This document shows, one piece after another, positions 7,831 through 52,451 of a stretch of 64,000 nucleotides of DNA. The notes beneath the pieces were generated by a model. That model saw nothing but the letters and a program-made list of their open reading frames with translations, had not been told where the DNA came from and did no database searches. Origin of the DNA: a virus; the IMG/VR virus record IMGVR_UViG_3300021256_000014, positions 854-64,853 of that record, one strand, 5' to 3'. Both the position numbers and the translations under genes were made by a program. Every line of letters starts with the position of its first letter. The stretch's first letter is position 1.

Positions 7831-7858
7831 CTATTAGAGGAGCTTATTTTTTAGCGAA
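7831..7858 (-). promoter_or_regulatory. 28-bp phage motif, putative phage-RNAP promoter
   Basis: + strand ctattagaggagcttattttttagcgaa. Confidence 0.65.
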
Positions 7859-11674: not shown

Positions 11675-12204
11675 AATGTTTCTCCTTTCAATTTTTCATT
11701 AAGATAAAAGTTCATTTGATCCCAAATACTGCAAAGCCTCTGGTCTTTCTTTGGATGACGCAGGGGAAAAAGTCCTCCGTTGCCGTTTGCCTCATACGAT
11801 CTTGAAAGCCATGCTTTAACAACTCCTTCAACAAGGTCTTCCCTGTAAACCTTATCTGTTGCCGGGTAAAGCCCAAGGTTTTGAATCATCTCCCAAAACC
11901 ACTTCTCGGGCTTCTCTTCTCCAGGCTCTGCCATGATGTCCTCTTCAATCCTTATAGACAAAGCCACGAGCATCTCTAAAATGCTGCACGGTTCTAGTCT
12001 GTCAGAATATAAAAGGTAGTCTCCGGTCTCATTTGCGTACCGATCTCTTAGAAACATCCCATCCTTTGCCCTGTTGGCATCGGTCGGAATCTTAAAAGAC
12101 CACGTAAACGGGGTATCAAAAAGATAAGCAAGAAGGCGCCTATGTCGAACTGCCCCCTCGCTTATCTTGTCTGTAAGATAGTTTAAGTATTCCTCTCTGT
12201 TCAT
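11671..12204 (-). CDS. conserved phage hypothetical protein
   Basis: DANRAKDG..LR, CSILEMLVAL, GNGGLFPL motifs; coupled ORF. Confidence 0.65.
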   Translation of the reverse strand: MNREEYLNYLTDKISEGAVRHRRLLAYLFDTPFTWSFKIPTDANRAKDGMFLRDRYANETGDYLLYSDRLEPCSILEMLVALSIRIEEDIMAEPGEEKPEKWFWEMIQNLGLYPATDKVYREDLVEGVVKAWLSRSYEANGNGGLFPLRHPKKDQRLCSIWDQMNFYLNEKLKGETL

Positions 12205-14293: not shown

Positions 14294-14935
14294 TCAGTTA
14301 ATGCGAACAGGCTTCGGGAACTTCACCCACCAGCCCCTGGCTACGTGTTCGATCGGTACATGATCAAGATTTGTCCATCCCCAGTTGTTATCCGGGAATT
14401 CGCTCTCGATCTGCGCTCCAAGCTCCTCGTCAATAGTTGTGACGTAGTCATACATCTCAAGTACTGACACGCCTTCGTTGCCATACCTTCGAAGGTCGCT
14501 TCTAAGATTGTTTAAAAGTTCAACTGCTCTTTCCCTGCTCGGAAATACAATCCGATCCCAGTGAACCTTCACCTTTTCAGTCGGCGCTACCGGCTGCCTG
14601 TAGTTATCCTTGTAATAATTGTCATACGATGCCTTATGCCCCGGGCCTTTGGAATATCCGCTGTAGTAAGTGCTGCTTGCCTCATCTCCGTAGATTGCTT
14701 TCTGGATTCCCGAGATGAACATGTCAGCAAGAATATCTTTTGCCTTCGGGATCATGACTTCGTTGACAACCGACGATGCCACCGTCTTCAAATCGTTCTC
14801 AAACAAAGCGTTGACGATTCTTGTGCTCAGCGGCTCTTTATAGTACTCGATAAGCCCCTCCACTTTTTTCTTTGGCTCTTTTGTTGCCAAAGAGGCGAGG
14901 CGATCGGCTTCCTTCTTAATCTGATCGTCTAACAT
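14294..14935 (-). CDS. conserved phage hypothetical protein
   Basis: DNNWGWTNL motif; RBS. Confidence 0.65.
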   Translation of the reverse strand: MLDDQIKKEADRLASLATKEPKKKVEGLIEYYKEPLSTRIVNALFENDLKTVASSVVNEVMIPKAKDILADMFISGIQKAIYGDEASSTYYSGYSKGPGHKASYDNYYKDNYRQPVAPTEKVKVHWDRIVFPSRERAVELLNNLRSDLRRYGNEGVSVLEMYDYVTTIDEELGAQIESEFPDNNWGWTNLDHVPIEHVARGWWVKFPKPVRIN

Positions 14936-14949
14936 AGATTTCTCCTTTG

Positions 14950-14986
14950 AAAAAAATAGAGAGCCAATCTTTCGATTGACCCTCTA
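14950..14986 (-). terminator. intrinsic terminator
   Basis: Hairpin TAGAGGGTCAATC-GAAA-GATTGGCTCTCTA plus T run; core repeated near 21756 and 23938. Confidence 0.75.
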
Positions 14987-15008
14987 GTTTCGAGTTACTT
15001 AAACCGTT

Positions 15009-15341
15009 TCAGATCTCGGATTCCTCATTATGGAATTCTTTCTGAAAAGTTGTTGTCTCCTGCGGACGCGTATACGTCTGCTGACTCTGCCAAGCTTCGA
15101 ACTTGGCTTTCCGTCTCTTTGACGTAGCCTTGTCGATGACAAGAAGTCCTCCGACGACAGCACCGAACGCAGCCGCAACGCCCTCGATCACACGACCGGT
15201 GGTTTTCAGCCACTTCGGAACTCCCGTCTTCTCCTTCTTTTCATCAGCAGGCTTTGTCTCCGGATTCGGAGCCTCGTTCTGCTGCTCAGAGTTCACTTCC
15301 TTGTATTCACATTCGCTAACTACTTTCTTTTCATCTGCCAT
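15009..15341 (-). CDS. single-TM hypothetical protein
   Basis: Start moved to MADEKK after GAAAGGAG RBS. Confidence 0.65.
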   Translation of the reverse strand: MADEKKVVSECEYKEVNSEQQNEAPNPETKPADEKKEKTGVPKWLKTTGRVIEGVAAAFGAVVGGLLVIDKATSKRRKAKFEAWQSQQTYTRPQETTTFQKEFHNEESEI

Positions 15342-15379
15342 GATAATTCTCCTTTCGTCTTTAGGCAGTTTATAGTTCC

Positions 15380-15407
15380 TCATTAGAGGAGCTAATTTTT
15401 CTGCGAA
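15380..15407 (-). promoter_or_regulatory. 28-bp phage motif
   Basis: tcattagaggagctaatttttctgcgaa. Confidence 0.7.
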
Positions 15408-15565
15408 TCCTTGTATTTGAACTTAACCGGTCTGTGAGAATATGAATTTACCGGATTATCCAAACACTCAAAACAAGGATCGTCCTTCTCGGACAGTTTG
15501 CTGAATGCGCAAAGCTCACAGTATTTGTGAAACTCTACGATCTTGTCAGGATTAAGTTCTCCCAT
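15392..15565 (-). CDS. small Cys-rich protein (57 aa)
   Basis: Manual translation MGELNPDKIVEFHKYCELC...DPCFECLDNP; AAGGAGG RBS. Confidence 0.6.
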   Translation of the reverse strand: MGELNPDKIVEFHKYCELCAFSKLSEKDDPCFECLDNPVNSYSHRPVKFKYKDSQKN

Positions 15566-15574
15566 TTTCCCTCC

Positions 15575-16399
15575 TTAGTAATACCTTGCTCTCGGGCTGC
15601 TGTAGGACGAATACGCCATGACAGGCTTTGTGTAAAAGTCCATAATGTATCCAGGCTCTTTTGTTCCGTCTGCAGCCTCATACTCAAACGTGTTATTAAG
15701 ATTTACGCTGATCTCGTCGTGCTCCGCTACGTCCCACACAAACAAATCTGCAAATCCGCATCTGGACAGGCCAAAATCATCGAAAATATCAGTCATTCGA
15801 ACTTCGTAGTCCTCCCAGCCCTTAGCCTTTGCTTCTCTCAAAGCACAGCTCCAGTTATTAACTACAAGCTCGACATAGTCTTTTGTTGCCCTGAAGGTCT
15901 TGCCTGTCATTGGTTCTCTGAAAATATAAGTGCCATGTCCGGTGTTTTCGACCTCACTCATAACAACAGGCCTCTCACTTGCCCTATTCTGCATGACCTT
16001 TCTATCGATCTCATCTGCCGTCTCTTTACCGACAACCTCTTCTGTTGCCTTCTTCGTATCCTCTCTAAGAGTCGAAGCAACGGCCAGTGCCTCAGCGAGC
16101 TTTACGATCTTCTCTCCGGTCCTTTTGTGATTAAGGATCGCAGATCCCCACGCAACGGCTACGGCCATCATGGTTCGGCCTGCCACCGGCACTATAGCCT
16201 TTGCCGTCTCAAGGTTGCTTGCTCCCTCTTCTTTTTTCTCTCTTAAAATCTTCTCGCACTTGGGTCCGTCCTTAAGCGCGAACACAACTGCCGCTCCCGT
16301 TGCCACGATCGTGACTGTTGTTAGAATTGTCGAATCATGCTTATCCCAGATTCGAAGTGCCGGAGCTGCCGCTCTCTTTGCCAGTGCTATTACGTTCAT
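15575..16399 (-). CDS. membrane-associated phage protein, paralog 3 (DUF6353-like)
   Basis: KHDSTILT...; same architecture as other paralogs. Confidence 0.65.
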   Translation of the reverse strand: MNVIALAKRAAAPALRIWDKHDSTILTTVTIVATGAAVVFALKDGPKCEKILREKKEEGASNLETAKAIVPVAGRTMMAVAVAWGSAILNHKRTGEKIVKLAEALAVASTLREDTKKATEEVVGKETADEIDRKVMQNRASERPVVMSEVENTGHGTYIFREPMTGKTFRATKDYVELVVNNWSCALREAKAKGWEDYEVRMTDIFDDFGLSRCGFADLFVWDVAEHDEISVNLNNTFEYEAADGTKEPGYIMDFYTKPVMAYSSYSSPRARYY

Positions 16400-16465
16400 A
16401 CGTAGCCTCCTTTACATTTGGAAAAAATAAGGAGAGCCTATCTTTTCGATAAGCCCTCCGGGTTC

Positions 16466-16669
16466 TTAGGCGGTGAATCCCTTCACCACAACGTCTACGG
16501 TTTCATCCTCCTTTCTGTTTTCCTTTTTGTTAAACCAGCGCCATGCCTTCTTGGCCGCATTCTGCTCATCATCTACAGTTTCAGTCTTCTTTCCGAAGAC
16601 CTTCTTGCAGATGACAACACCTGCTGCCAGAATTGCCAAAGTGCCAATTACAAAACCATACTTCTTCAT
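16466..16669 (-). CDS. small single-TM protein
   Basis: Cassette ORF between motif and terminator. Confidence 0.65.
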   Translation of the reverse strand: MKKYGFVIGTLAILAAGVVICKKVFGKKTETVDDEQNAAKKAWRWFNKKENRKEDETVDVVVKGFTA

Positions 16670-16713
16670 GTTAGATCCTCCGTTTTTTTATTGTGTAAAA
16701 AGTTTCTACTACC

Positions 16714-16741
16714 TCATTAAAGGAGCCAAAAATATCACGAA
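16714..16741 (-). promoter_or_regulatory. 28-bp phage motif
   Basis: tcattaaaggagccaaaaatatcacgaa. Confidence 0.7.
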
Positions 16742-17556
16742 TTCTTGTCAAGAAGCTTCATCGCAACTTCCTTCCAGATGTCCCTCTCCGTCTCCAGATG
16801 AGCTATATAGGCGCTTCTTGCATCGATGTAGTTGTCGGGAATGACCGGCTTTTCTTCCTTCTTTTCAGGTCTGTCGCGATACACGATCTTAACTTCCGGA
16901 TCAGCCTTAACTACTTCAGGCTTCGGAATCTCAATGCCAAACACCTTCATAAGCGCTTCCTTTGCCTCGTTAAGCTTCTCAACATGCGTGAACATTCTGC
17001 GCCTTACGCAGTACTTAAGCGGCTTGAAAGTCACATGCGTCGGATCGCCGAGATACGTCCGCCCTAAAATATCAACGCTGAAGGGATTCTCGCCTACGAT
17101 AGTTCTGGTCTCGTCTGAGTCAGGATAGAGCTTGATTCCCTGGCAGGCTCCGTTAAGGGAGTTCAGGGCAAATATCATCCCTTTGGTTCCGTTGGATTCC
17201 TCGGTCTGCCATACCTCTCCGGGAAGGATCTTGCCTGTCTTTTGAGTTGCTGTGAGAGTCGGGGTCATTACTTGAGGTTCTGTAAGCTCAAGCACTCCCG
17301 GCATTACTTCTACAAGCTCGTCTTTTTCAACAGGCTTGTCCTCGACCCACTTGTATTCTGCCATCTTTCCCTTTGGAGAAATGTTCTGAATCTCCTTGTG
17401 TTCCTTTGCAAGCCTGTGCATATACATGGTTCTTGCGGGCGCGGTCATATTAAATTTTGTCTCGATTGCCGAGCTAGTCATTGTCTCGCCCTTTTTAAGA
17501 ATGTCGATTAAAATCTTGTCTCTTTCGATGGTTTCCTGTCGTTTTGTCTGACTCAT
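16735..17556 (-). CDS. hypothetical protein with possible N-terminal winged HTH
   Basis: LIDILKKGETMTSSAIETKFNM pattern; RBS. Confidence 0.55.
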   Translation of the reverse strand: MSQTKRQETIERDKILIDILKKGETMTSSAIETKFNMTAPARTMYMHRLAKEHKEIQNISPKGKMAEYKWVEDKPVEKDELVEVMPGVLELTEPQVMTPTLTATQKTGKILPGEVWQTEESNGTKGMIFALNSLNGACQGIKLYPDSDETRTIVGENPFSVDILGRTYLGDPTHVTFKPLKYCVRRRMFTHVEKLNEAKEALMKVFGIEIPKPEVVKADPEVKIVYRDRPEKKEEKPVIPDNYIDARSAYIAHLETERDIWKEVAMKLLDKNS

Positions 17557-17570
17557 ATTTTTCTCCTTTC

Positions 17571-17607
17571 AAAAATAAAAAGAGCCCAGACATTTGTCTG
17601 AGCCCTC
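17571..17607 (-). terminator. intrinsic terminator
   Basis: GAGGGCTCAGAC-AAAT-GTCTGGGCTCT plus T run; near copies at 18721 and 20246. Confidence 0.75.
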
Positions 17608-17611
17608 AATC

Positions 17612-17839
17612 TCAACAATAAACATTTACCTTTTCAGTTTTGTCTCTGAAAGACAACCTATAAAGCAACCTGTCCGTCCAGTCAAACTCCGCCATAATCA
17701 TGACCTGCGACTCTGACTCGCTTACAGGAAGTCTGAATTCTTTGAATTCTTTATTCCTGCTAAGCAGCCAGTGCTTCGCTCTGATCAGATTCTCAGTGTT
17801 CTTAGGCATAATCATAATTCCCTTATTGCTCCCCTTCAT
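17612..17839 (-). CDS. hypothetical protein
   Basis: Cassette ORF with RBS. Confidence 0.6.
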   Translation of the reverse strand: MKGSNKGIMIMPKNTENLIRAKHWLLSRNKEFKEFRLPVSESESQVMIMAEFDWTDRLLYRLSFRDKTEKVNVYC

Positions 17840-17878
17840 AGTTACACTCTCCTTTCAAAGATCAAAGTTAAATTGTTC

Positions 17879-17906
17879 TCACTAGAGGAGCCAAAATATC
17901 AGCGAG
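17879..17906 (-). promoter_or_regulatory. 28-bp phage motif
   Basis: tcactagaggagccaaaatatcagcgag. Confidence 0.65.
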
Positions 17907-18327
17907 GCCAGCCGTCAAATTCTTCCAGTCCGTCAACCCACTTATTGAGGTTTGCTATTGACAGGGCAAGATCGTTCGTGGTTGACCTGATGCAGGTGGC
18001 ATAAAGCGAGTCGTCGTCCTCTCGCCATCCTTCTGGAAGTGAGGGAAACTTATACTTATCGTCAAACAAAATGTACCCTTTCCTGTTCACCTTCTCCCTC
18101 ATCTCGTGTCCGGAACAGCAGTAGCGCGTCCCGTAGCCCTTTTTGTTAAGCTTTACAATCGGCTTTATCATAAGCTCGTCAATGGTGACAAGTTCCAAGC
18201 CACCGTTGCACCGGGCGTTGGGGCAGTACATAAACGACCTTCCAGTATCCCACGTCGGCGTGATCTGATTTGCAAAATAGACATTAAGACACTCAGGGCA
18301 GAACAAATATGAAGATCTCCAACTCAT
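17899..18327 (-). CDS. Zn-ribbon hypothetical protein
   Basis: CPEC, CPNARC and LNKKGYGTRYCCSGH motifs. Confidence 0.6.
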   Translation of the reverse strand: MSWRSSYLFCPECLNVYFANQITPTWDTGRSFMYCPNARCNGGLELVTIDELMIKPIVKLNKKGYGTRYCCSGHEMREKVNRKGYILFDDKYKFPSLPEGWREDDDSLYATCIRSTTNDLALSIANLNKWVDGLEEFDGWPR

Positions 18328-18339
18328 ATAATTCTCCTT

Positions 18340-18684
18340 TCAAATATCAATTACTTCCGTATCCCCATTTGCGTAAGTAACTGTAAGTTCTCCGCCGCAA
18401 TATTTGAGAATCTTGGAAAGCTGCTCAACACTAAAACTGTTCCTGTTTAACTTATTCCACAGGTAATTCTTACCCATTATGCCGCAGGAATACGCCAGTT
18501 CGTCTGTTACGCTTTTGCACTCTTTGTCGCTAGTAGCAATGGCAGTTGCGACGATTCGAGACAGCGGTCGATCGGAATAGCGCAATGGGTTTATACCGGC
18601 AGGCGCGTGTTTCTTAACCAAAGAAGCAGATATAACTGTGAGCCCGAGCTTCTCTGCCTCTTCTTTCAGTTCTTCGTATGTCAT
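18340..18684 (-). CDS. Cro/CI-like HTH protein
   Basis: DELAYSCGIMGKNYLWNKLNRNSFSVEQLSKILKYCG resembles an XRE HTH. Confidence 0.5.
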   Translation of the reverse strand: MTYEELKEEAEKLGLTVISASLVKKHAPAGINPLRYSDRPLSRIVATAIATSDKECKSVTDELAYSCGIMGKNYLWNKLNRNSFSVEQLSKILKYCGGELTVTYANGDTEVIDI

Positions 18685-18750
18685 TTAGTTCTCCTTTCAA
18701 ATATCAATGAAAAAATTAAAGAGCCCAGACAAACGTCTGAGCCCCATGAT

Positions 18751-19092
18751 TCACTTAAGCAGCCCCATATCGTCAAGGATTGAACGATACGTTTCTCCTT
18801 CCTGATACCTCCTTTCTATGATCCTCTCCTGTCTTTTGGTAAGCCGCTTCCTAGCATAGCTCCATCTGTCAGTCCGGCGGTCGTAGAAACGACGGTTCCG
18901 CCATTCGTCCTCTTTCTTATATGCTATTATCTTCGTCACGTGTTTCGCGATTCCAGCAATAGATGTAAGAAGAATGATTGCCAGTTCCTTGTTCCTCACA
19001 CACCAGCCTGCAAACTTTGCAAGCCCGTCAGTAAACTTCTCCCAGAGATCCTGGAAAAACCACTTCACTTTCTGTACCATTCTTTTAATCAT
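18751..19092 (-). CDS. single-TM phage protein
   Basis: Cassette ORF; FYDRR...W...LT motif. Confidence 0.65.
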   Translation of the reverse strand: MIKRMVQKVKWFFQDLWEKFTDGLAKFAGWCVRNKELAIILLTSIAGIAKHVTKIIAYKKEDEWRNRRFYDRRTDRWSYARKRLTKRQERIIERRYQEGETYRSILDDMGLLK

Positions 19093-19125
19093 ATCTATTC
19101 TCCTTTCGTGTGGATACTTAGTTCC

Positions 19126-19153
19126 TCATTAGAGGAGCATAAATATAAGCGAA
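19126..19153 (-). promoter_or_regulatory. 28-bp phage motif
   Basis: tcattagaggagcataaatataagcgaa. Confidence 0.7.
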
Positions 19154-19200
19154 GAAAAAAAAGAGGAGACACAAAGTCTCCCCGTTTTCTCTTAATCACT

Positions 19201-19266
19201 TTATGAATGCCGGCATATAATGCCATACACCAATATTGCAATCAAGATCAAACTAATCAAGTCCAT
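19201..19266 (-). CDS. 21-aa hydrophobic micropeptide
   Basis: MDLISLILIAILVYGIICRHS; AAGGAGGAG RBS; own motif and terminator. Confidence 0.6.
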   Translation of the reverse strand: MDLISLILIAILVYGIICRHS

Positions 19267-19301
19267 AACAGTCTCCTCCTTTTTTAAGTGATACATCTAC
19301 T

Positions 19302-19329
19302 TCATTAAAGGAGTAGAAATATCAGCGAA
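19302..19329 (-). promoter_or_regulatory. 28-bp phage motif
   Basis: tcattaaaggagtagaaatatcagcgaa. Confidence 0.7.
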
Positions 19330-19416
19330 AAAATGAGAGAACGGTTTCAACATCGCCAATTCCTACATTGTTAAAATGCGCCTGTACCTAAGGATGTAGT
19401 TTCCTTTTCTCTCATT
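19328..19416 (-). ncRNA. candidate structured small RNA 1 (~85 nt)
   Basis: ORF-less cassette; 10-bp terminal inverted repeat AATGAGAGAA/TTCTCTCATT, inner stem CTACAT/ATGTAG, 3' T run. Confidence 0.55.
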
Positions 19417-19439
19417 AGAAGAGCCAAAATTTCTGCGAA
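19412..19439 (-). promoter_or_regulatory. 28-bp phage motif
   Basis: tcattagaagagccaaaatttctgcgaa. Confidence 0.7.
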
Positions 19440-19440
19440 C

Positions 19441-19752
19441 TTAAAACCTCGTCTCCCACGCGTGCTTTCGAAGCCGCGGCATCTTTAAAGCCCACATTAC
19501 TTTTCTGACCTCAACTGTCGGGTACAGATCGCCGCTTGGAAGCTCTGCGTTTTCATTGAGATACTCATCAAAGCCCTCGGCATTTGAAATATCAATGCTA
19601 AGCTTCTCTTCCACCCTGCCCCACCTTGTGTACTTAAGGTCTGGATTGAAGTACTGCTGAATCACGGCAAGCCCTTTTCCGTTTGGAAGAAGGAACAGCG
19701 TGCAGTCATTATAAAGCGGGTGATCGCAGTAATAAGTTTTGCCGTCTATCAT
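19441..19752 (-). CDS. conserved phage hypothetical protein
   Basis: CDHPLY..CTL...GLAVIQQ...YPTVEVRK; coupled ORF. Confidence 0.65.
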   Translation of the reverse strand: MIDGKTYYCDHPLYNDCTLFLLPNGKGLAVIQQYFNPDLKYTRWGRVEEKLSIDISNAEGFDEYLNENAELPSGDLYPTVEVRKVMWALKMPRLRKHAWETRF

Positions 19753-20054
19753 GTTTCGTTTCTCTTTCGATGAGTTTCATAAAGGTACCTGAATAATTCG
19801 TGGCGCTTATATAAAAGGTCGTCGTATTCGTTCTGAAGATCTACTATTTGGGAGCTAAACGCTCTATCAAGCTCCTCCTTGATATTAGTAAGGTCTTCAA
19901 TAGCGCGATCTAACTCAGCACTTCGCTTACTCATTTTTGACATTTTGTCGAGTATCTCTTCATCTGAAATCCCATCAGGTATGTCTGTTTGCTCAAATTC
20001 AAACATCTTGTTCGCATTATTGAGCGCGTTGATAATAGCAGTTTTGTCCAGCAT
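19749..20054 (-). CDS. coiled-coil hypothetical protein
   Basis: AAGGAGG RBS; helical sequence. Confidence 0.6.
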   Translation of the reverse strand: MLDKTAIINALNNANKMFEFEQTDIPDGISDEEILDKMSKMSKRSAELDRAIEDLTNIKEELDRAFSSQIVDLQNEYDDLLYKRHELFRYLYETHRKRNET

Positions 20055-20087
20055 GTCTGTGTCCTCCTTTTGAAAAATATAAGTATC

Positions 20088-20215
20088 AAAAAAAATGAGA
20101 GAGGTGACCCACGCTAGTGCTTATGCATACGTAGTCGGATCTTCCCCGACCCACTCAGTCAGATCTTGTCTGACCTCTCGGCGGTCTTAAGGGTGCGTAT
20201 GCTTACCTTCTCATT
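20088..20215 (-). ncRNA. candidate structured small RNA 2 (~125 nt)
   Basis: ORF-less cassette; closing stem AATGAGA-AGGT/ACCT-C-TCTCATT, stem GCATACG/CGTATGC, hairpins GTCAGA/TCTGAC and GTCGG/CCGAC, 3' T8. Confidence 0.65.
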
Positions 20216-20238
20216 AAAAGAGCTAAAAATTCTGCGAA
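20211..20238 (-). promoter_or_regulatory. 28-bp phage motif
   Basis: tcattaaaagagctaaaaattctgcgaa. Confidence 0.7.
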
Positions 20239-20291
20239 AAATAAAGAGCCCAGATAAATACCTGAGCCCTTGTGCGGTTACCGCCAGTGTG

Positions 20292-20414
20292 CTACACTTC
20301 AGGCGGGTATCCGAGGATATACCTGACATGCCTCTCTGTGAGATTCGTCATACTCGCGATCTCGGGGATCGTAAGATACTCCTCTCGATAGAGATGGATG
20401 ACATAATCCTCCAT
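20292..20414 (-). CDS. 40-aa stand-alone HTH protein
   Basis: MEDYVIHLYREEYLTIPEIASMTNLTERHVRYILGYPPEV; GAAAGGAGGTG RBS; not in ORF track. Confidence 0.65.
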   Translation of the reverse strand: MEDYVIHLYREEYLTIPEIASMTNLTERHVRYILGYPPEV

Positions 20415-20447
20415 ACCCTCACCTCCTTTCTTGTGACTTACTGGGTT

Positions 20448-20475
20448 CCATTAAAGGAGGTTATTTATTTGCGAA
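20448..20475 (-). promoter_or_regulatory. 28-bp phage motif
   Basis: ccattaaaggaggttatttatttgcgaa. Confidence 0.65.
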
Positions 20476-20491
20476 AGAAAAGAGCCCGGAA

Positions 20492-20737
20492 CTAAATCCG
20501 AGCCCATCCGTAAAGATCGTCATACGGACCAACTTTTAGTATTGCTTCAGGGTTTACTGCTTCTTCGTATTCATAAATAATCTTCCGCAGCTCAAGAAGA
20601 CTCATGTATCCATAGGTGTTAAATTCTGCAACCACCCTATCTAATATCATGCCTCTCATTTCGTACGGGATACCACTTAATACGAGTAAAGTAGCAGTAG
20701 CTTCCTTTAAGCTTTCAACTGCTCTGTTAGTATCCAT
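20492..20737 (-). CDS. hypothetical protein
   Basis: Cassette ORF; GYMSLLEL...DDLYGW resembles the C-terminus of 14294..14935. Confidence 0.6.
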   Translation of the reverse strand: MDTNRAVESLKEATATLLVLSGIPYEMRGMILDRVVAEFNTYGYMSLLELRKIIYEYEEAVNPEAILKVGPYDDLYGWARI

Positions 20738-20751
20738 AAGTTACCCTCCTT

Positions 20752-20779
20752 TCATTAAAGGAGCAAATATAAATGCGAA
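20752..20779 (-). promoter_or_regulatory. 28-bp phage motif
   Basis: tcattaaaggagcaaatataaatgcgaa; SD begins immediately downstream. Confidence 0.7.
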
Positions 20780-20829
20780 AAAAAAAGAAAGAGACCATAA
20801 AGGTCTCCTCCTTTGAAACTTCTTTCGAT

Positions 20830-21297
20830 TCAATGTTTGAAGAATCGACCAGACAGGCCATTCTTCACAACCGTCTGCTCTGACGTTGTCAGTAAGGCGT
20901 TCTCTTTCTCGAACTCTGTCGATCGATCGAACATCTTAATCTGCGCAACCGCAGAGAAAATCGTTGCCGCTGCTATCCCGCCCTTGCCGACAAGATCAAG
21001 AATTGCTTTTCTCGTGTCGCTCTTGACTTCGGACTCATTCCTCTCACGCTCTGCCTTGATAGCTTCAGCCTTTGTGTTAGCCTCGCTAGCAATTTTCTCG
21101 CGCTCGACCTTGAGTTCCTCGCTCTTCGCCTCCCGATCGAAGTCATTCTTGATATCGGCGTTAAGCTCGTGATAGAGCTTGCTGATCGCCTCGTACTTCT
21201 GCACAGCATCTTCATCAGATGGATCGATCCTGCCAATCGCATCAAGAAGCGCCTTATTAGCCGCCAGTTTCCTAGCCGTGAAATCTTCTGCTGTCAT
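20830..21297 (-). CDS. coiled-coil membrane-associated phage protein
   Basis: Cassette ORF with hydrophobic segment and FEKE motif. Confidence 0.65.
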   Translation of the reverse strand: MTAEDFTARKLAANKALLDAIGRIDPSDEDAVQKYEAISKLYHELNADIKNDFDREAKSEELKVEREKIASEANTKAEAIKAERERNESEVKSDTRKAILDLVGKGGIAAATIFSAVAQIKMFDRSTEFEKENALLTTSEQTVVKNGLSGRFFKH

Positions 21298-21333
21298 TTA
21301 GTTCTCCTTTCTTATTTGAAAGTTTACAGTTTC

Positions 21334-21361
21334 TCACTAAAGGAATAAAAATATAAGCGAA
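21334..21361 (-). promoter_or_regulatory. 28-bp phage motif
   Basis: tcactaaaggaataaaaatataagcgaa. Confidence 0.7.
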
Positions 21362-21379
21362 AAAGAAAAGACCCGTGAA

Positions 21380-21691
21380 TTACTCACGGATCCAATCAGT
21401 TGGACATTCCTTAAAGCTACGTGATATAGCATACAAATATTTCTTTGTGTAACTGTTTTTTCTTTTCCTCAACATGCTAGCATATACAAACACTAAATTT
21501 CCAATCGGCACGCAATAGCAGACTATGTCATGTTTTTTGAATTCTTTACGTAAATCTTTGAATTCGTCGAATGACAATGCTCTGCACAACACGGCTAGAT
21601 TTGGATTCTTTGCCATATCGCCAGCTAATGTTTCAGGCGTAACCCAAGTGTTTTCCCAGTTACCATTCCTAGATAATATTTTCATACTCAT
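21380..21691 (-). CDS. hypothetical protein
   Basis: Start MSMKIL after GAAAGGAG. Confidence 0.6.
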   Translation of the reverse strand: MSMKILSRNGNWENTWVTPETLAGDMAKNPNLAVLCRALSFDEFKDLRKEFKKHDIVCYCVPIGNLVFVYASMLRKRKNSYTKKYLYAISRSFKECPTDWIRE

Positions 21692-21720
21692 ATTCGTCTC
21701 CTTTCTAGGTGTATTGTTCC

Positions 21721-21748
21721 TCACTAAAGGAGTAAAAATATAAGCGAA
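21721..21748 (-). promoter_or_regulatory. 28-bp phage motif
   Basis: tcactaaaggagtaaaaatataagcgaa. Confidence 0.7.
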
Positions 21749-21802
21749 AAAAGAAGAGCCAATCTTTCGATTGACCCTTCAGTCGACAGTTACAAATCTT
21801 TC

Positions 21803-22093
21803 TTACTTCAGAAGCCAGTTACCTGCTTTTGCTTCCCAGTTTGAGCACCAGATGAAAGCGTGACCAAGACCATGCTTTGCGCCTGTGCCAACCTTAACTG
21901 CACCTCCGGCAACGGTCTTCCCGGCCGTGACTACACCGTCAGCTACCACTGTGCCCGCATCGCAGACTGCAGTGATACCAACCTTGTACCACGGCTGTTT
22001 AGCCGTCTCCGTAGGCTTGTCAGACTTGGCAAACGCTGTCATAGACATCGTCATAACCATCATCATTGCTACTACAATAACCATTTTCTTCAT
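21803..22093 (-). CDS. secreted small protein with signal peptide
   Basis: MKKMVIVVAMMMVMTMSMTAFA signal peptide then Gly/Ala/Val amphipathic repeats. Confidence 0.65.
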   Translation of the reverse strand: MKKMVIVVAMMMVMTMSMTAFAKSDKPTETAKQPWYKVGITAVCDAGTVVADGVVTAGKTVAGGAVKVGTGAKHGLGHAFIWCSNWEAKAGNWLLK

Positions 22094-22125
22094 AACTTTA
22101 TCCTCCATAAAAGTTTGTTTTCTTG

Positions 22126-22153
22126 TCATTATAGAGGCATAAATTTATGCGAA
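22126..22153 (-). promoter_or_regulatory. 28-bp phage motif
   Basis: tcattatagaggcataaatttatgcgaa. Confidence 0.7.
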
Positions 22154-22168
22154 AAAAAAGAAGGAGAG

Positions 22169-22303
22169 TTAATCTCCCTCTTCTTCATTGAGTTTATCGC
22201 ACACTATTAAACATACGACTATTGCGGCTACAAACCATGTTACCGGACTTGTCAGTATTTCAGACCATGTTCCGAAATAATATCCCCAAGTGTTAGTAAT
22301 CAT
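22169..22303 (-). CDS. 44-aa single-TM protein
   Basis: MITNTWGYYFGTWSEILTSPVTWFVAAIVVCLIVCDKLNEEEGD; AAGGAGG RBS. Confidence 0.6.
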   Translation of the reverse strand: MITNTWGYYFGTWSEILTSPVTWFVAAIVVCLIVCDKLNEEEGD

Positions 22304-22347
22304 AATTTACCTCCTTATAAAATCAAATGTATTATTTGTGTTTCTTC

Positions 22348-22375
22348 TCATAATGAGGAGGCAAATTTATGCGAA
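22348..22375 (-). promoter_or_regulatory. 28-bp phage motif
   Basis: tcataatgaggaggcaaatttatgcgaa. Confidence 0.65.
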
Positions 22376-22392
22376 AAAGAAGAGGCCAGACA

Positions 22393-22632
22393 TCAGTCTG
22401 AACCCCTTTCTTTTACAAAACTGCAACATAAGTAAATTATGTCATACGGCCAAAGAATAATGTTGATTACGCAAGCCAATAGTAACGCTACCGTACAAGC
22501 GGCCCCATATAAACCAAACTCGCGTTCGATAAGCTTTCGATGTATTCGTTCTGCTTTACCGAGCATACGAAACATAGTCCATATGTTACCAATAATACAG
22601 TAAATCAATAACTTAAATATCAAATTATTCAT
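22393..22632 (-). CDS. small membrane protein
   Basis: Two hydrophobic segments; AAGGAGG RBS. Confidence 0.6.
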   Translation of the reverse strand: MNNLIFKLLIYCIIGNIWTMFRMLGKAERIHRKLIEREFGLYGAACTVALLLACVINIILWPYDIIYLCCSFVKERGSD

Positions 22633-22668
22633 AATGTCCTCCTTAAACAAGTACGTATTTACAGTCTC

Positions 22669-22696
22669 TCACTAGAGGAGCAAATAAAATTGCGAA
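22669..22696 (-). promoter_or_regulatory. 28-bp phage motif
   Basis: tcactagaggagcaaataaaattgcgaa. Confidence 0.7.
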
Positions 22697-22746
22697 AAGG
22701 AAAGAGCCCGGATTTTAGTCCGAGCCCATCCTTTTGACAGATAAGG

Positions 22747-22959
22747 TTATTCTTCTTCTTTTCTCTCTTTTTCAATTTCCTTACTGATAAAGTCGATAAG
22801 TGTCGTGCCAATTACCAGGCGGATCATGAAGTATATCAGCAGTAACCCTCCAATCAACCCAAGGTTACTTACTATAAATGCTATAGTAAGCACCGGGTGG
22901 AATAAGAGCAGTAACATAAATATAACCCAGATCGCCTTAACAATGGTTGATAGCTTCAT
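22747..22959 (-). CDS. small membrane protein
   Basis: Highly hydrophobic 70-aa cassette ORF. Confidence 0.65.
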   Translation of the reverse strand: MKLSTIVKAIWVIFMLLLLFHPVLTIAFIVSNLGLIGGLLLIYFMIRLVIGTTLIDFISKEIEKERKEEE

Positions 22960-23007
22960 TATTTATCCTCCTTTTTTGAATCCGATTTAAAGTTACAATC
23001 TTATCTG

Positions 23008-23035
23008 TCACTATAGAGGCAAAAATATAAGCGAA
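23008..23035 (-). promoter_or_regulatory. 28-bp phage motif
   Basis: tcactatagaggcaaaaatataagcgaa. Confidence 0.7.
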
Positions 23036-23083
23036 AAAAGAAGAGGCTTGGATTTTCTCCAATAACCTCTCTTTTGACTTTAA

Positions 23084-23287
23084 TTACTCTTCAATCAGTT
23101 TCTGATAATCTTTCCAAAATGCTTTTGTGATCTTCCTGCCCCATTTGATTGTCCATTTGACGAGCTTCTTCATCACCCTGTCACTCATTAACACCTTCCA
23201 GGTGATAAACATAGTTACCAGGGATCCAAGCGTGATCCCGCCACTGATCATCAAAATAGTTACAATAATCTCATTCCATTCCATCAT
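23084..23287 (-). CDS. small membrane protein
   Basis: TM segment plus basic amphipathic tail. Confidence 0.65.
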   Translation of the reverse strand: MMEWNEIIVTILMISGGITLGSLVTMFITWKVLMSDRVMKKLVKWTIKWGRKITKAFWKDYQKLIEE

Positions 23288-23325
23288 ATATTACCTCCAT
23301 AAATTGTTTGAATGTAGTTTTCTTG

Positions 23326-23353
23326 TCATTATAAGGAGGTAAATATATGCGAA
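23326..23353 (-). promoter_or_regulatory. 28-bp phage motif
   Basis: tcattataaggaggtaaatatatgcgaa. Confidence 0.7.
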
Positions 23354-23366
23354 AAAAGAAGAGGCG

Positions 23367-23600
23367 TTAAGCCTCCTCCTTTTGTAGTAAGTCCATGAGT
23401 GTGGCTACCCTGTCGTTAAGTTCATGAGTCTCTGCGGTCAGTTGCTCGTAAGCTTCAATAACAGATGTTATGAGCTCGTCGTCTTTTGCTTTTTCTCTAT
23501 GTTCGTCTATCACATCGGCAACGTGCTCGATCCAATAATCTGCTGTTGAAAGATACATCGCAATATAGCCCAGAGTATCCAATCGTGATACTTTATCCAT
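23367..23600 (-). CDS. small acidic helical protein
   Basis: Cassette ORF; GAAAGGAGGT RBS. Confidence 0.65.
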   Translation of the reverse strand: MDKVSRLDTLGYIAMYLSTADYWIEHVADVIDEHREKAKDDELITSVIEAYEQLTAETHELNDRVATLMDLLQKEEA

Positions 23601-23618
23601 AAGTAGTTACCTCCTTTC

Positions 23619-23646
23619 TCACTAAAGGAGTAAAAATTTATACGAA
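23619..23646 (-). promoter_or_regulatory. 28-bp phage motif
   Basis: tcactaaaggagtaaaaatttatacgaa. Confidence 0.65.
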
Positions 23647-23662
23647 AAAAGAAAGAGAAGCA

Positions 23663-23869
23663 TTAACGCTCCCCTTTCAGTCCTGCTACTATAATTTTTC
23701 TTAATTCTTTTTTCTCTTCATCTGTTAATGATACACTTATATCTTCTTTAAAATCAGCCATGTCTATTTTACCAGCCTTCTTGCATTCAACCGCTAAGGT
23801 CACAAGGTCTATTTCTCTCCTAATCTTAGCAAGTTGAGCATCCTCGGTAAGTAATCTTTTCCGACTCAT
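23663..23869 (-). CDS. hypothetical protein
   Basis: Start MSRKRL after GAAAGGAG. Confidence 0.6.
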   Translation of the reverse strand: MSRKRLLTEDAQLAKIRREIDLVTLAVECKKAGKIDMADFKEDISVSLTDEEKKELRKIIVAGLKGER

Positions 23870-23897
23870 AATAATCTCCTTTCTGTGAATCATTACC

Positions 23898-23925
23898 TCA
23901 CTAAAGGAGCCAAATTATCTGCGAA
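23898..23925 (-). promoter_or_regulatory. 28-bp phage motif
   Basis: tcactaaaggagccaaattatctgcgaa. Confidence 0.7.
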
Positions 23926-23979
23926 AAGAAAAAAGAAGAGCCAATCTTTCGATTGACCCTTCGAGATATGAGACTATTT

Positions 23980-24381
23980 TCAGCCCCAAGGAAATCTTCC
24001 GCATTTCCCATCTGTAATTTTTACAATGTTTTCACTGCGCTGACTTTTGTAGGCCGTAATTCCGCCGTGCTTTTCAAGCATTTTATCTACAACTTCCACA
24101 GGCACATACCCGTAGACGGTGTTTGTCAGATCATCAGGATCTTCCGCGAAGTCGAGAATCATCTCCTCCTCCTTAGACGGATAGCCAAGTTCGACCTGTT
24201 TATAGTCGATTTGCCCATCTTTTCTGGGAGTGCAGTAATGATACTGACTCGCTTGAATCGAGATCGCAAAACCGTCTGCGCACACTGCCCATGGGCGAAT
24301 GTCCTGTACTGTTACAGCACGGGCTCCAAGCCCTACAAGTTTAGCGCTATAAAACTTCTTTAAAAACTCATTTGTGTTCAT
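23980..24381 (-). CDS. conserved phage hypothetical protein
   Basis: CADGFAISIQAS..HYCTPR...VELGYPS...TVYGYVP...KHGG pattern. Confidence 0.7.
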   Translation of the reverse strand: MNTNEFLKKFYSAKLVGLGARAVTVQDIRPWAVCADGFAISIQASQYHYCTPRKDGQIDYKQVELGYPSKEEEMILDFAEDPDDLTNTVYGYVPVEVVDKMLEKHGGITAYKSQRSENIVKITDGKCGRFPWG

Positions 24382-24414
24382 GTTATTCTCCTTTCTGTGA
24401 TGAAAATATAATCC

Positions 24415-24442
24415 TCACTAAAGGAGGCAAATTATCTGCGAA
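24415..24442 (-). promoter_or_regulatory. 28-bp phage motif
   Basis: tcactaaaggaggcaaattatctgcgaa. Confidence 0.7.
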
Positions 24443-24833
24443 GGCGGCTAAGACAGTAGAAGAAGCGCCTGTACTGATGATAATAATAGTCCCTTGAGCA
24501 CACAAGGCCATCTGCCCTGAGGCACCCATAAGATAACCCTTCGGTCACGCCTTTTAGAAGGTATTTGTAAATATCACTATCAGCCTCGATCGCAGCCTGC
24601 TCGACCATCTCCACCTTCTTTAAATACTCATCTCTCCTCTCAACCATCCATTCAACAGGCTTAGCAACATCGCTCGACCTCCCGTCTCCCTTCTCGCCAA
24701 ACCAGTTAAGCCTGCCAAGCTCTTTCTTCCACTCATTATACTGAAGGCAGAAGTGCTTAAGCTCATAGTATCTGTGTTTACTGATGTAGTATTCGTTACT
24801 TTTTGAAATCTTTGCTCTAATTACAGTTCCCAT
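24432..24833 (-). CDS. RinA/ArpU-like phage transcriptional regulator
   Basis: ISKHRYYELKHFCLQY N-terminus and C-terminal HTH-like (GLSY...SRDYYY..YRRFF). Confidence 0.55.
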   Translation of the reverse strand: MGTVIRAKISKSNEYYISKHRYYELKHFCLQYNEWKKELGRLNWFGEKGDGRSSDVAKPVEWMVERRDEYLKKVEMVEQAAIEADSDIYKYLLKGVTEGLSYGCLRADGLVCSRDYYYHQYRRFFYCLSRLRR

Positions 24834-24859
24834 AACATCCTCCTTAAATGTAGGGAAAC

Positions 24860-25042
24860 TGTAACTCAAATGACCGTAACCTGCGTTCTCCTTTCATTAA
24901 AATTACTCAAGTTACTCAAAATACTGCCCTGCGATAGTCTATAGTCTACGCTTTAAAACACGTTTTGCTCGTGGGTTCGAATCCCATATGCTCCATTGAA
25001 AGTACGCCTTTAAAGGGATACGTTACTCAACTTATTACTCAT
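24860..25042 (+). mobile_element. attP site: tRNA 3' fragment (24970-24995) flanked by TTACTCAA arm-type repeats
   Basis: GTGGG-TTCGAAT-CCCAT T-arm plus ATGCTCC-A acceptor strand directly downstream of integrase; TTACTCAA at 24903, 24912 and 25023. Confidence 0.8.
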
Positions 25043-26277
25043 TTAAGCTCGGCAATTGAGTTAATTATCTCTCTCTTTTGCTGAGCTCTCTTTCTGTCCC
25101 TATGATAATGAAGCTCGGTTGTTGAAATATCAGTGTGCCCCATCTGCTTTTCTATAACTTTCGAATCCACATGGTTATCAAGTAGTATTGTTCCGTAAGT
25201 CTTTCTAAGCTTGTGGGGAGATCGTATTGGAATATCAAGCTTTTTGCAGATCTGGTAGAGTCTTTTCCTTATCTGATTTGTATGCATCCTGTTTCCATGC
25301 ATCCCGATGAAGATAAAGTCCGGAGCTTTTCTTAAAATATCAAGAAGCCAAGTGTAGGAATCTGGCACTATTACTCTCCTTACTCCTGCAGGCGTCTTTG
25401 GATACTCTGATACTTCAAAGTAGTTCTTGCCATTTAATCTAAACTGAGTCTCCGTTCTATGAACAAAGATTTCCCCGTTTAAAATATCAGAACCTTTAAG
25501 GCACACGACCTCGCCAACCCGAAGACCTGTTGCGAACAATAAAAGGACCCCAAGACACGACAAATCGTCTAAATGCTCTTTGCAGTACTTTGTAACCATC
25601 TCGATCTCATCGTCGTAAAAGATCTCTTTTGCATCATCAACTATCTTTGGCTTAAAGTCAGCCTCACTCATATCGAGGTCTTGAAATATCATTTCAACTG
25701 AGTATGGAAAGAGCCCCATTCTCTTTGCCTTTTTAAAGATGCCCTTAGTTAAGGTCTTTAAATTGGAGAAAGCCTTTCTTGACAGATGGTATTTTGCAAC
25801 CTGGTCTTCTAAAAAGGTCGAAATATCATTGGGAGTAACCCTGCTTATCCTCTCTTTTCCAAAGTCAGCAAAGAATTTCTCAAAGTCGTGGTCAAACCTT
25901 GTCGCAGTTGAGGGCTTGATTTTGCCAATTTCGACTCTTCTTTTATTCCACTGAGCATAAATATCATTGATTGTCGGATCTGTTGCGTTGTTCTTGTAGT
26001 AAGATACTATAAGCTTTTCAAGTTCTGCCCTGTCCTTTCTTTGAATTCTCTTTCGATCCGGCAGGTAAGTGACCCACCTCCCATCTTTGTTTTGATAGAT
26101 TTTGTACCTGTGTTTCTTTAAGTATTCCTGATTTTCCATTTCCTTTATTCTGCAGATTACGGTCTCATCAAGAATACCATTTTTGAGTAACTCATTCAAC
26201 AAAGTGTCCATGCTAGCATAATAACTTGAGTAATGGTCACCCGGATTCGAAAAAAAATAGAGCCGTGAAATATCCAC
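25039..26277 (-). CDS. int: tyrosine recombinase / phage integrase
   Basis: TGLRVGE, PKT, SPHKLRKTY, MGH...Y catalytic motifs; start may be Met at 26211. Confidence 0.9.
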   Translation of the reverse strand: MDISRLYFFSNPGDHYSSYYASMDTLLNELLKNGILDETVICRIKEMENQEYLKKHRYKIYQNKDGRWVTYLPDRKRIQRKDRAELEKLIVSYYKNNATDPTINDIYAQWNKRRVEIGKIKPSTATRFDHDFEKFFADFGKERISRVTPNDISTFLEDQVAKYHLSRKAFSNLKTLTKGIFKKAKRMGLFPYSVEMIFQDLDMSEADFKPKIVDDAKEIFYDDEIEMVTKYCKEHLDDLSCLGVLLLFATGLRVGEVVCLKGSDILNGEIFVHRTETQFRLNGKNYFEVSEYPKTPAGVRRVIVPDSYTWLLDILRKAPDFIFIGMHGNRMHTNQIRKRLYQICKKLDIPIRSPHKLRKTYGTILLDNHVDSKVIEKQMGHTDISTTELHYHRDRKRAQQKREIINSIAELK

Positions 26278-51983: not shown

Positions 51984-52002
51984 TTCTCTTCCCTCCTTTT
52001 AC

Positions 52003-52431
52003 TTACTTCTCGGATTCGATCCGGCGGATCTCCTTACGAAGCTCCTCCCTCTCGTACTCGGTCTGGGCCTCGTCGTACATTCCCTCAAGCTTCGCAATCA
52101 TGCGATCTTTAAGAGAATGTCCGCTCATGCCTCCATCTCGCGAGACATATCTACCCGTAACTGGTGATCTCATTGGCGCGTAAGCATTTGTGTTGGGGTT
52201 CATACCATCCATGTAAACTCTGGGCATTACGTTGCGCCTTGAGTACATGGAAGAAGAGTTATCCCATTCGCTTGACTCACCCATGTCCATATCGTCGTAC
52301 ATAAGCTCTCTGCGAAGCTTATACGCCTTGCAAAGCATCTCAAGGTCAGCGGAGGTGAGATCTTTCTTCTTGTTCATATCCTCGATGCACTCATCGAGAA
52401 TCTCCTTTGTCTTATAGGCAAGTTTATCCAT
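52003..52431 (-). CDS. hypothetical protein
   Basis: RS..TGRYVSRD...GHS motif; RBS. Confidence 0.6.
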   Translation of the reverse strand: MDKLAYKTKEILDECIEDMNKKKDLTSADLEMLCKAYKLRRELMYDDMDMGESSEWDNSSSMYSRRNVMPRVYMDGMNPNTNAYAPMRSPVTGRYVSRDGGMSGHSLKDRMIAKLEGMYDEAQTEYEREELRKEIRRIESEK

Positions 52432-52451
52432 TTTGATTTCTCCTCCTTTCC

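Follow-up and report, generated by a model that had tools for sequence, protein, structure and literature searches.

The stretch analysed here (the window) is 64,000 nucleotides long and covers bases 854-64853 of the 64,853-bp virus record IMGVR_UViG_3300021256_000014, which carries direct terminal repeats and is rated complete. All long open reading frames (ORFs) of the window lie on the minus strand. Along the direction of transcription, a small ORF comes first, followed by an endonuclease-like ORF (63206-63544) and a 1047-aa protein (59463-62606), assigned below to the single-chain two-barrel RNA polymerases (RNAPs). Further along are the HNH, terminase, portal, protease-capsid and tail genes, a 2360-aa tape measure and a lysin. 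The integrase (25039-26277), ORF 24432-24869 and about 9 kb of small cassettes come next, and DUF6353 proteins and a 1477-aa primase-polymerase close the order. A 28-bp element stands at the head of these cassettes and, once more, ahead of the polymerase gene. It is probably the promoter of that polymerase. No close relative was found by megablast of the motif region against phages or by a scan of bacterial genome contigs for the polymerase, and no Rfam family reached its gathering score in the window.

A sequence-only reading had listed 21 copies of this element and described them as invariant in length and of one orientation. This description has been borne out. Each listed coordinate is the low-coordinate end of a real 28-nt site on the minus strand (7831-7858, 15380-15407 and onwards to 24415-24442, and 63584-63611), and the length is the same at every site. 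The pattern TCGY-N7-T-N4-YYY-N2-TARTR occurs 19 times, on the minus strand only, whereas dinucleotide shuffles give 0.14 +/- 0.38 matches and 0 of 100 shuffles reach 19. With a weight matrix made from 18 seed sites, 20 minus-strand sites score 21.9-42.0; elsewhere the minus strand reaches 11.9 at most, and the plus strand 9.5. In the structural genes at 25,000-63,500, where no copies had been noticed, scores above 12 are absent. Every site stands ahead of a Shine-Dalgarno sequence (SD) or an ORF. It was also correctly observed that most sites lie behind a terminator: 13 of the 21 directly follow a hairpin (free energy, dG, -12 to -20.6) with a T run, and a fourteenth is a borderline case. The cassette region as a whole has more terminator-like sites than expected (25 vs 7.9 +/- 3.2). 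The 3' end (stop codon) of an upstream ORF is overlapped by six sites. Many near-identical copies of fixed length, on one strand and ahead of phage genes, are a trait of phage-RNAP promoters, and the element displays it.

In the weight matrix, the information is concentrated at T1-C5 (TTCGC), T13, C17-T21, T23, A24, R25, T26, G27 and A28. Positions 2-6 of the element form a TCGCA box, 13-15 a middle element and 21-26 an AT-rich block resembling TATAAT; the purine pair at 27-28 is almost always GA or AG. The middle element is ACA in most relatives; this phage has instead an invariant T13 and a CTCC block at 17-20, and its TATAAT-like block has drifted to T-N-TARt. As the blocks are about 10 bp apart, the three of them lie on one face of the helix. 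The letters CTCCTTT at positions 16-22 are complementary to the SD of the gene that is headed; they would mask this SD in read-through RNA and leave it free in an RNA started at position 27.

The strict pattern misses two sites: 22348-22375, which scores 21.9, and 63584-63611, which scores 10.0. Although weak in the phage's own matrix, the second of these fits the family consensus TATAATAG. It follows its upstream ORF without a terminator and precedes the endonuclease-like ORF and the RNAP gene. Its position is conserved, since in relatives, too, the endonuclease and polymerase genes are preceded by a site; the equivalent in G005, a related phage described below, is at 37212. The cassettes had been called 'early', which is an assumption, and this one site also heads the polymerase and late-gene block. 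At 63574-63553 on the minus strand, about 15 nt or less past the site, there is a hairpin with a T run, and the same arrangement is seen in G005 after site 37212. It looks like an attenuator or an anti-termination checkpoint for the polymerase and late genes.

The remaining sites, all on the minus strand, begin in the order of transcription with 24415-24442, which overlaps the stop codon of ORF 24432-24869 and heads ORF 23980-24381. A run of sites placed after terminators follows. Here, 23898-23925 heads ORF 23663-23869. At 23619-23646, behind a strong terminator, the SD GAAAGGAGG starts right after the motif, and the start codon of ORF 23367-23600 is at motif position 47. Sites 23326-23353 (TATAATGA), 23008-23035 (TATAGTGA) and 22669-22696 head ORFs 23084-23287, 22747-22959 and 22393-22632, respectively, and the site with a divergent 3' half, 22348-22375 (CATTATGA), heads the 44-aa ORF 22169-22303. 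Site 22126-22153 (again TATAATGA) heads ORF 21803-22093, 21721-21748 heads ORF 21380-21691, and 21334-21361 heads ORF 20830-21297. Another strong terminator precedes 20752-20779, whose SD AAAGGAGGG starts at motif position 28 and is followed by the start codon of ORF 20492-20737 at position 43. Still behind terminators, 20448-20475 heads a 40-aa ORF starting at 20414, 20211-20238 is separated from ORF 19749-20054 by a leader (about 170 nt) that contains a further hairpin and T run, and 19126-19153 heads ORF 18751-19092. Between the last two, 19412-19439 comes directly after the stop of ORF 19441-19752 and is followed by about 85 nt without an ORF up to a T run, and 19302-19329, after a T run, heads a 21-codon hydrophobic ORF. 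The other sites overlap the stop of the ORF before them. These are 17879-17906 (a CTCGC variant, between ORFs 17899-18327 and 17612-17839), 16714-16741 (a TTCGT variant, between ORFs 16735-17556 and 16466-16669), 15380-15407 (overlapping ORF 15392-15565 and heading the ORF that starts at 15341) and the outlying 7831-7858, which has a TAATAG end, overlaps ORF 7844-8608 and heads the ORF starting at 7791.

Some of the units behind these sites deserve a mention of their own. The ORF-less unit of about 85 nt and the leader of about 170 nt, at 19335-19412 and 20060-20211 on the minus strand, are candidate small RNAs. The start of the leader (GAAGGTAAGCATA...CCTTAAGAC) resembles the RNA after G005 site 11717. 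The 40-aa ORF headed by 20448-20475 (20292-20414, minus strand) reads like a minimal helix-turn-helix (HTH) protein (…LTIPEIASMTNLTERHVRYIL…).

Scans of related genomes, which the sequence-only reading had proposed, revealed copies in the same register in all relatives scanned. A common signal, nTCGCA-N14-TATAAT-GA/AG, heads the gene cassettes in every relative examined. Four near-identical relatives have 14-15 sites each; one of them, a fragment, has a polymerase that is 99% identical, and the gene is absent from the other three. G005, a complete 66.6-kb phage with a 51% identical polymerase, carries 12 forward and 2 reverse sites of the form TCGCA-N14-TATAATGA/AG, one of them just upstream of the endonuclease and polymerase genes. 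In Lactococcus phage 1706, 8 forward and 0 reverse sites of T(T/C)C(G/A)CA-N14-TATAGTAG keep the same register, CACA variants of the box among them. Arthrobacter phage Mudcat has 5-7 sites (TCGCG-N14-TATAATGA). Gordonia phage Tanis and Streptomyces phage Bing have 12 and 6 copies, respectively, of TCGCA-N14-TATAATGA, followed in both by a conserved GACCCCTA. In Gordonia phage Vardy, 8 gene-strand sites of CRC-N15-TAWARTRR are located between genes 36 and 55, where 0.07 would be expected. The family set has 136 sites from 11 genomes. The 14-bp spacing from TCGCA to TATAAT in all 136 was set by the search pattern; it is the strand bias and the controls that show the spacing to be real. The Tanis record also has, at 21839-55955, the word CATATT(T/C)(T/G)G 19 times on the coding strand and 0 times on the other, nearly always within genes; this repeat is unrelated to the promoter motif.

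The element was then compared with the distribution of the polymerase gene. Sixteen further viral contigs that encode the polymerase have 117 matches of CRC-N15-TAWARTRR on the polymerase strand vs 4 on the other strand; a reversed control pattern has 16 matches in the same contigs, both strands together. Conversely, at least 62 contigs with TCGCA-N13-CTATAATGA were found, and 50 of them, chosen by the pattern only, were tested, with 12 single-hit contigs left out. Among the matches listed, PHROG 4291, the family of the polymerase, is encoded by 29 of these 50, by 18 of the 20 contigs that are at least 90% complete, and by 13 of the 19 multi-hit contigs, the six without it being 19-69% complete fragments. 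It was found in 0 of 14 control genomes. Thus, the motif and the polymerase gene travel together across phages of Firmicutes and Actinobacteria.

The polymerase itself (ORF 59463-62606) matches PHROG 4291 ('RNA-dependent RNA polymerase') with an E-value of 3.9e-290. In Pfam, an RdRP hit is seen at E 0.0016, below the cut-off, together with C-terminal HTH hits, and the search for a PDB sequence match returned none. Its catalytic loop, GADFDGD (SGADFDGD at residues 558-565), is invariant in 6 of 6 aligned homologs. On the profile match and this metal-binding DFDGD loop, the protein is assigned to the two-barrel (beta'-like) RNAPs of PHROG 4291, the '1706 family'. Full-length homologs of 34-44% identity are present in 250 phage records (tblastn; 60 records listed), with Arthrobacter, Gordonia, Streptomyces, Lactococcus, Faecalibacterium and others as hosts. 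It has been reported that this HTH-flanked protein is the signature gene of a supercluster spanning phages of Actinobacteria and Firmicutes, and that a DxDGD motif is common to this protein and the YonO-like and crAss-like polymerases; the accessible part of that report describes no promoter (10.1101/842583).

At the C-terminus of the polymerase, about residues 1004-1047 are modelled as a tri-helical HTH of the sequence-specific kind. A model of the C-terminal 215 aa has a predicted local distance difference test score (pLDDT) of 86.3, and its structural matches run through the last ~42 residues only: IstA (Z 7.6; root-mean-square deviation 1.6 over 42 aa), Tc3 (Z 7.4) and, in the same range of Z 7.6-6.9, resolvases. 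A sigma-like module fused to the polymerase was considered and rejected, as nothing supports sigma-2-like parts and sigmaF region 4 (Z 5.6) appears among many generic HTHs. Of the non-structural proteins that are universally shared, the polymerase alone has a DNA-binding domain that could be detected. Its N-terminus has a segment of the form L-x-HYG ... SGRYPWGSG, with L-x-HYG invariant in 6 of 6 homologs. By eye, this region (…GDFLSHYGVG…) resembles the DUF7211 N-terminal segment found in two proteins of the head module, 47105-47611 (E 2.9e-7) and 50253-51377 (E 8.2e-4). These two share G-D/S-x-L-x-H-Y/H-G-V/I, and the polymerase has a variant form. The shared segment is possibly a capsid-targeting tag. 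The homolog of the polymerase in phage 1706 (orf75) is labelled 'structural protein' in its GenBank record.

Two other proteins have been considered as partners. A 97-aa ORF (59154-59447, minus strand; PHROG 4303) is encoded directly after the polymerase gene here and in G005, 1706, Mudcat, Tanis and Bing, and is a candidate polymerase cofactor by this placement. ORF 24432-24869 (minus strand), whose probable true start gives 133 aa, had been named 'RinA-like', a label that finds no backing: it has 0 Pfam families at E up to 10 and 0 NCBIfam families, and it belongs to PHROG 11237, 'unknown function'. A profile search of PDB sequences gave nothing relevant. Its model (pLDDT 81.2) brings sigmaA chains to the top rows of Foldseek, weakly (E 0.6-5, probability 0.15 or less), and in a wide fold search the best Z of 6.2 falls on generic helical hairpins. 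A homolog exists in G005 (hidden Markov model, HMM, E 8.6e-40) and is absent from the motif-bearing 1706, Mudcat, Tanis and Bing, where the best HMM E-value is 0.033.

The geometry of the element was compared with that of sigma-70 promoters. A sigma-70-type scan of 14500-25200 gives 22 hits, with 19.2 +/- 4.9 in shuffles; the TTCGC box and TARTGA end of the motif itself make up none of these hits. The motif lacks TTGACA, as had been pointed out; its sites have no -35 box 16-18 bp from the -10-like block and no TG extension. In the register 21-26, position 22 would be the -11 A. In this phage it is A at 4 of 20 sites, T at 10 and C at 6, so that 16 of the 20 are without it, and T23, A24, T26, G27 and A28 stay fixed despite this loss. 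The feature of a sigma -10 element, A second and T sixth, is thus not found in the window; with 23-28 taken as the register, T never stands in sixth place, which is held by A or G. Over the 136 family sites, positions 27-28 are GA in 90, AG in 35, GG in 7 and AA in 4 (GA or AG in 125), and positions 29-30 are mostly purine. These conserved purines at 27-30 occupy positions that the sigma -10 reader ignores.

The distance to the SD bears on the start of the RNA. The sequence-only reading had remarked that the SD (AAAGGAGG) closely follows the motif at 20752-20779 and 23619-23646, and it does begin there 2-4 nt past motif position 26. Across the family, a good SD begins at motif position 28-34, with the ATG at 39-49, in 14 of the 136 sites (8 of 11 genomes), that is, 2-8 bases after TATAAT, and several of these sites follow strong terminators. 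With the SD at position 28-34, a start 6-8 nt after T26 would remove it, and a start at R27, on the pyrimidine-purine step T26/R27, would keep it.

Other readings of the same letters were tried and set aside. TTCGCA as a -35 box for TARTGA at 16 bp was rejected, since no lineage has T as the sixth base of that hexamer. Taken as its reverse complement, the 3' half of the motif is reminiscent of the core of T7/T3-class promoters. This plus-strand reading was rejected too; it would drive antisense RNA, and no Pol I-type RNAP family (Pfam) is present among the 8 ORFs of at least 500 aa. Positions 23-28 also form two in-frame stop codons (TAA/TAG, then TGA/TAG/TAA) in 129 of 136 sites, with GG at 27-28 avoided; the choice of start site may be the simple cause of this pattern. 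At 52000-64000, sigma-70-type hits are at chance level (20 vs 22.8). The best of them, TTGAAA-17-TACAAT (10/12) at 63912-63940 on the minus strand, lies upstream of a small Cys-rich ORF (63637-63873), which precedes the polymerase block, and may be the entry point of the host enzyme.

We propose that the 28-bp element serves as promoter for the single-chain two-barrel RNAP which the phage itself encodes, and that the RNA starts at purine 27. We consider this probable and hold it with moderate confidence. The sequence-only reading had argued for a promoter of the phage-RNAP type, not of sigmaA, with +1 in the terminal RTGA. This argument has been reinforced by the co-occurrence of the motif with the polymerase gene, by the -11 A missing at 16 of 20 sites and by the tight SDs at 14 of 136; the reader and the position of the start are nevertheless what we infer from these patterns. 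In the proposed mechanism, the polymerase would dock by its terminal HTH module or modules on the upstream TCGCA box, melt the AT-rich block and begin the RNA with the purine that follows T26, at position 27 or else 28. A transcript would open 1-35 nt ahead of the SD of a small gene and stop at the next hairpin and T-run terminator, the terminator of one cassette abutting the promoter of the next. One copy of the motif lies ahead of the block of polymerase and late genes, which would give the enzyme feedback on its own expression. It may also enter with the DNA, as its 1706 homolog is recorded as a structural protein and its N-terminus is like the putative tag on two head-module proteins; both features would fit a virion-delivered polymerase, as in N4, crAss-like phages and P23-45.

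A bolder form of the proposal, about which we are doubtful, goes further. The motif would be a complete, self-sufficient promoter, and a cellular-type RNAP of about 100 kDa in a single chain would be packed into the capsid via its N-terminal tag, injected, and left to read TCGCA with its own HTH and to start after TATAAT without sigma or the host enzyme. Such an arrangement would act as an autocatalytic switch. As a portable unit, it would have let the lineage move between Actinobacteria and Firmicutes with its promoters kept letter for letter.

Several points weigh against the assignment to the phage polymerase. In most relatives, the register 21-26 is TATAAT, the exact sigma-70 -10 consensus (A22 in 107 of 136 sites), and the host holoenzyme could therefore use many of the copies. 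Each cassette is closed by a classic intrinsic terminator, a type of signal known to be functional with the bacterial enzyme. In the crAss-like phage phi14:2, a conserved extended motif was identified as a sigma-70 promoter of the host, and the early transcripts of the virion RNAP had no common motif, going by the accessible part of that report (10.1101/2020.03.07.982082). The same three facts, together with the published reading of the motif in cluster DJ phages as a sigma-70 -10 (PMC9671010, PMC10868162), speak for ordinary '-10 only' promoters of host sigmaA, in which the lineage copies a strong TATAAT unit and TCGCA is a passenger or a UP-like element. We think this improbable. Besides the missing -35 box and TG extension, the -11 A has been given up here while its neighbours stay fixed, neither the TCGCA box nor its 14-bp spacing varies between hosts of two phyla, GA or AG is kept at 27-28 in 125 of 136 sites, and at 14 sites the SD would be cut short. 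The argument from the tight SD, in turn, concerns only those 14 of 136 sites and assumes that there is no translation from read-through RNA. Further, a generic HTH was all that was found in the C-terminal module of the polymerase, which showed no sigma-2-like or other promoter-melting domain, and a literature search, with supplements and the Vardy figure outside its range, yielded no mapped promoter, transcript end, binding assay or in-vitro assay for this polymerase family. For 15300-24900, no RNA data set was listed; two runs labelled 'metatranscriptomic' contain small shares (0.13 and 0.06) and are probably DNA. Finally, relatives share many genes. The co-occurrence is therefore confounded by common descent, and any conserved phage factor fits it equally well.

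Such a factor is the basis of another explanation, unlikely in our view though to be taken seriously, in which the host core RNAP is steered to the motif either by a small sigma-like protein on TATAAT-GA or by an activator at TCGCA that replaces the -35 contact. T4 offers models for factor-directed host RNAP in its MotA/AsiA middle promoters and gp55 late promoters (PMC5312081, in the part accessible). The perfect TATAAT of most relatives and the location of the TCGCA box, just where an activator replacing the -35 contact would bind, agree with this explanation, and the motif is accompanied by several conserved small proteins without an assigned function (59154-59447, 11671-12204 and 14294-14935). 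Yet the universally shared ones among the small proteins have no detectable DNA-binding or sigma domain. ORF 24432-24869 has sigmaA chains as its top, if weak, Foldseek rows, but is missing from four motif-bearing relatives. A holoenzyme built on the bacterial core would also start about 6-8 nt after the -10 and delete the SD at the 14 sites in 8 genomes, and it would face the 16 of 20 sites of this phage that lack the -11 A.

It is very improbable that the element is no promoter at all and serves instead as a cassette boundary for recombination or gene shuffling, or at the RNA level, for example, in this lineage, with CTCCTTT as an anti-SD that would keep the next SD masked in RNA reading through. 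The motif does flank many small variable cassettes, and predicted read-through folds pair the SD with the motif in 13 of 17 sites (mean dG -14.2). Composition-matched shuffles of the motif, though, pair with the SD in 10.4 of 17, so that the enrichment is weak, and the CTCC block, unlike the universal TCGCA and TATAAT-GA blocks, is specific to the lineage. Promoter traits are seen in the strict strand bias, in the placement before each SD and in the AT-rich block with purines after it. A boundary role could coexist with a promoter role, and on its own it leaves the conserved geometry unexplained.

Placed among known systems, the proposed pair of polymerase and promoter has likenesses in several directions. 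Promoters of the T7/T3/SP6 class are about 23-28 bp long, fixed in length and near-invariant, with an AT-rich melting block directly before a purine start. They have a purine-rich initial transcript and many copies on one strand, each phage having its own enzyme, and on paper the motif of the window is alike. Membership of this class is excluded, as the Pol I-like fold is unrelated and, by Pfam, no such gene is present among the 8 ORFs of at least 500 aa.

Closer in the type of enzyme is Thermus phage P23-45, also a siphovirus with single-chain two-barrel RNAPs and with arrays of motifs upstream of its pre-early and early genes. There, motifs upstream of mapped starts were assigned to two such polymerases (gp96 of the virion and non-virion gp64), partly by co-occurrence, in the accessible part of the report (10.1101/2022.12.01.518664). 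The starts were mapped by ONT-cappable-seq and the occupancy of the polymerase by ChIP-seq, whereas the window is known from its sequence alone. The P23-45 motifs are also AT-rich and GC-rich, and its polymerases belong to another family; that of the window has HTH modules at both ends. The phages phiKZ and AR9, as far as the consulted text shows, have late promoters assigned to the non-virion RNAP, as shown in vitro for phiKZ, with the words TATG (G being +1) and AACA-N6-TA/G (the last base being +1) (PMC5312081). As in the window, short conserved words end at the start site and phage RNAPs of the two-barrel class are involved, and the T-A-T/A-G plus purine resembles the TAATG/TAGTG seen here. 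Unlike in the window, the enzymes are multisubunit, the promoters are much shorter and have no upstream box at a fixed distance, and the starts were mapped by experiment.

YonO of the Bacillus prophage SPbeta, a temperate siphovirus of Firmicutes, is likewise a single-chain RNAP of the two-barrel class, and it transcribes phage genes from a start site of its own. The only start mapped lies upstream of yonK, and the accessible text states the promoter and the need for any factor to be unknown; HTH modules such as those of the window polymerase are not reported there (PMC5467207). YonO is too distant to be reached by tblastn with the window polymerase, and no Bacillus was named in the organism tally of the 250 matching records. 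Sigma-70 promoters and the tripartite middle promoters of phi14:2 share the TATAAT hexamer with the element, the latter also being a repeated motif of several blocks in the text available to us (10.1101/2020.03.07.982082). The element of the window departs from both: it has no -35 at 16-18 bp, an upstream box 14 bp away, no -11 A in most copies, conserved bases after the hexamer and an SD that is too close at 14 sites.

The motif is already known from two genome announcements of cluster DJ phages. The announcements of Vardy and Conley describe, in their accessible text, a 50-bp and a 43-bp intergenic motif with five copies, which was read as a sigma-70 -10 that 'may regulate gene expression' (PMC9671010, PMC10868162). 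Judged by site count and region, with the published logo aside, this intergenic motif is the same element as that of the window. In Vardy, five of the 8 sites lie about 22 nt before genes 39, 40, 44, 52 and 55, matching the published count and region, and the register TCGCA-N14-TATAATGA is shared; the window differs in its TATAAT block, which has drifted to T-N-TARTGA, and in the added CTCC block. Compared with the present analysis, the accessible text of the announcements makes no link to a phage polymerase gene and mentions neither an upstream box nor a cross-family comparison. Within the scope given above, the literature search found no prior link of the motif to the polymerase, no report of its spread and no mapped start.

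If the host enzyme reads the motif, the finding shrinks to an unusually rigid family of phage promoters. If the phage polymerase does, the current sigma-70 annotation of the motif would be corrected, and Gram-positive synthetic biology would gain a new orthogonal transcription pair. The enzyme and the promoter are common to hundreds of cultured, easily grown phages of Lactococcus, Arthrobacter, Gordonia and Streptomyces, and the question can thus be tested directly at the bench. A compact, sigma-free RNAP of the cellular type would be paired with a defined 28-bp promoter. This would bear, for a distantly related polymerase, on the question raised for YonO of the sequence recognised and the helpers needed (PMC5467207, in its accessible part). 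It would also explain why the G+C content of these phages is far below that of their actinobacterial hosts, as in Mudcat, with 45.1% against 63.4% in its host (PMC5513430).

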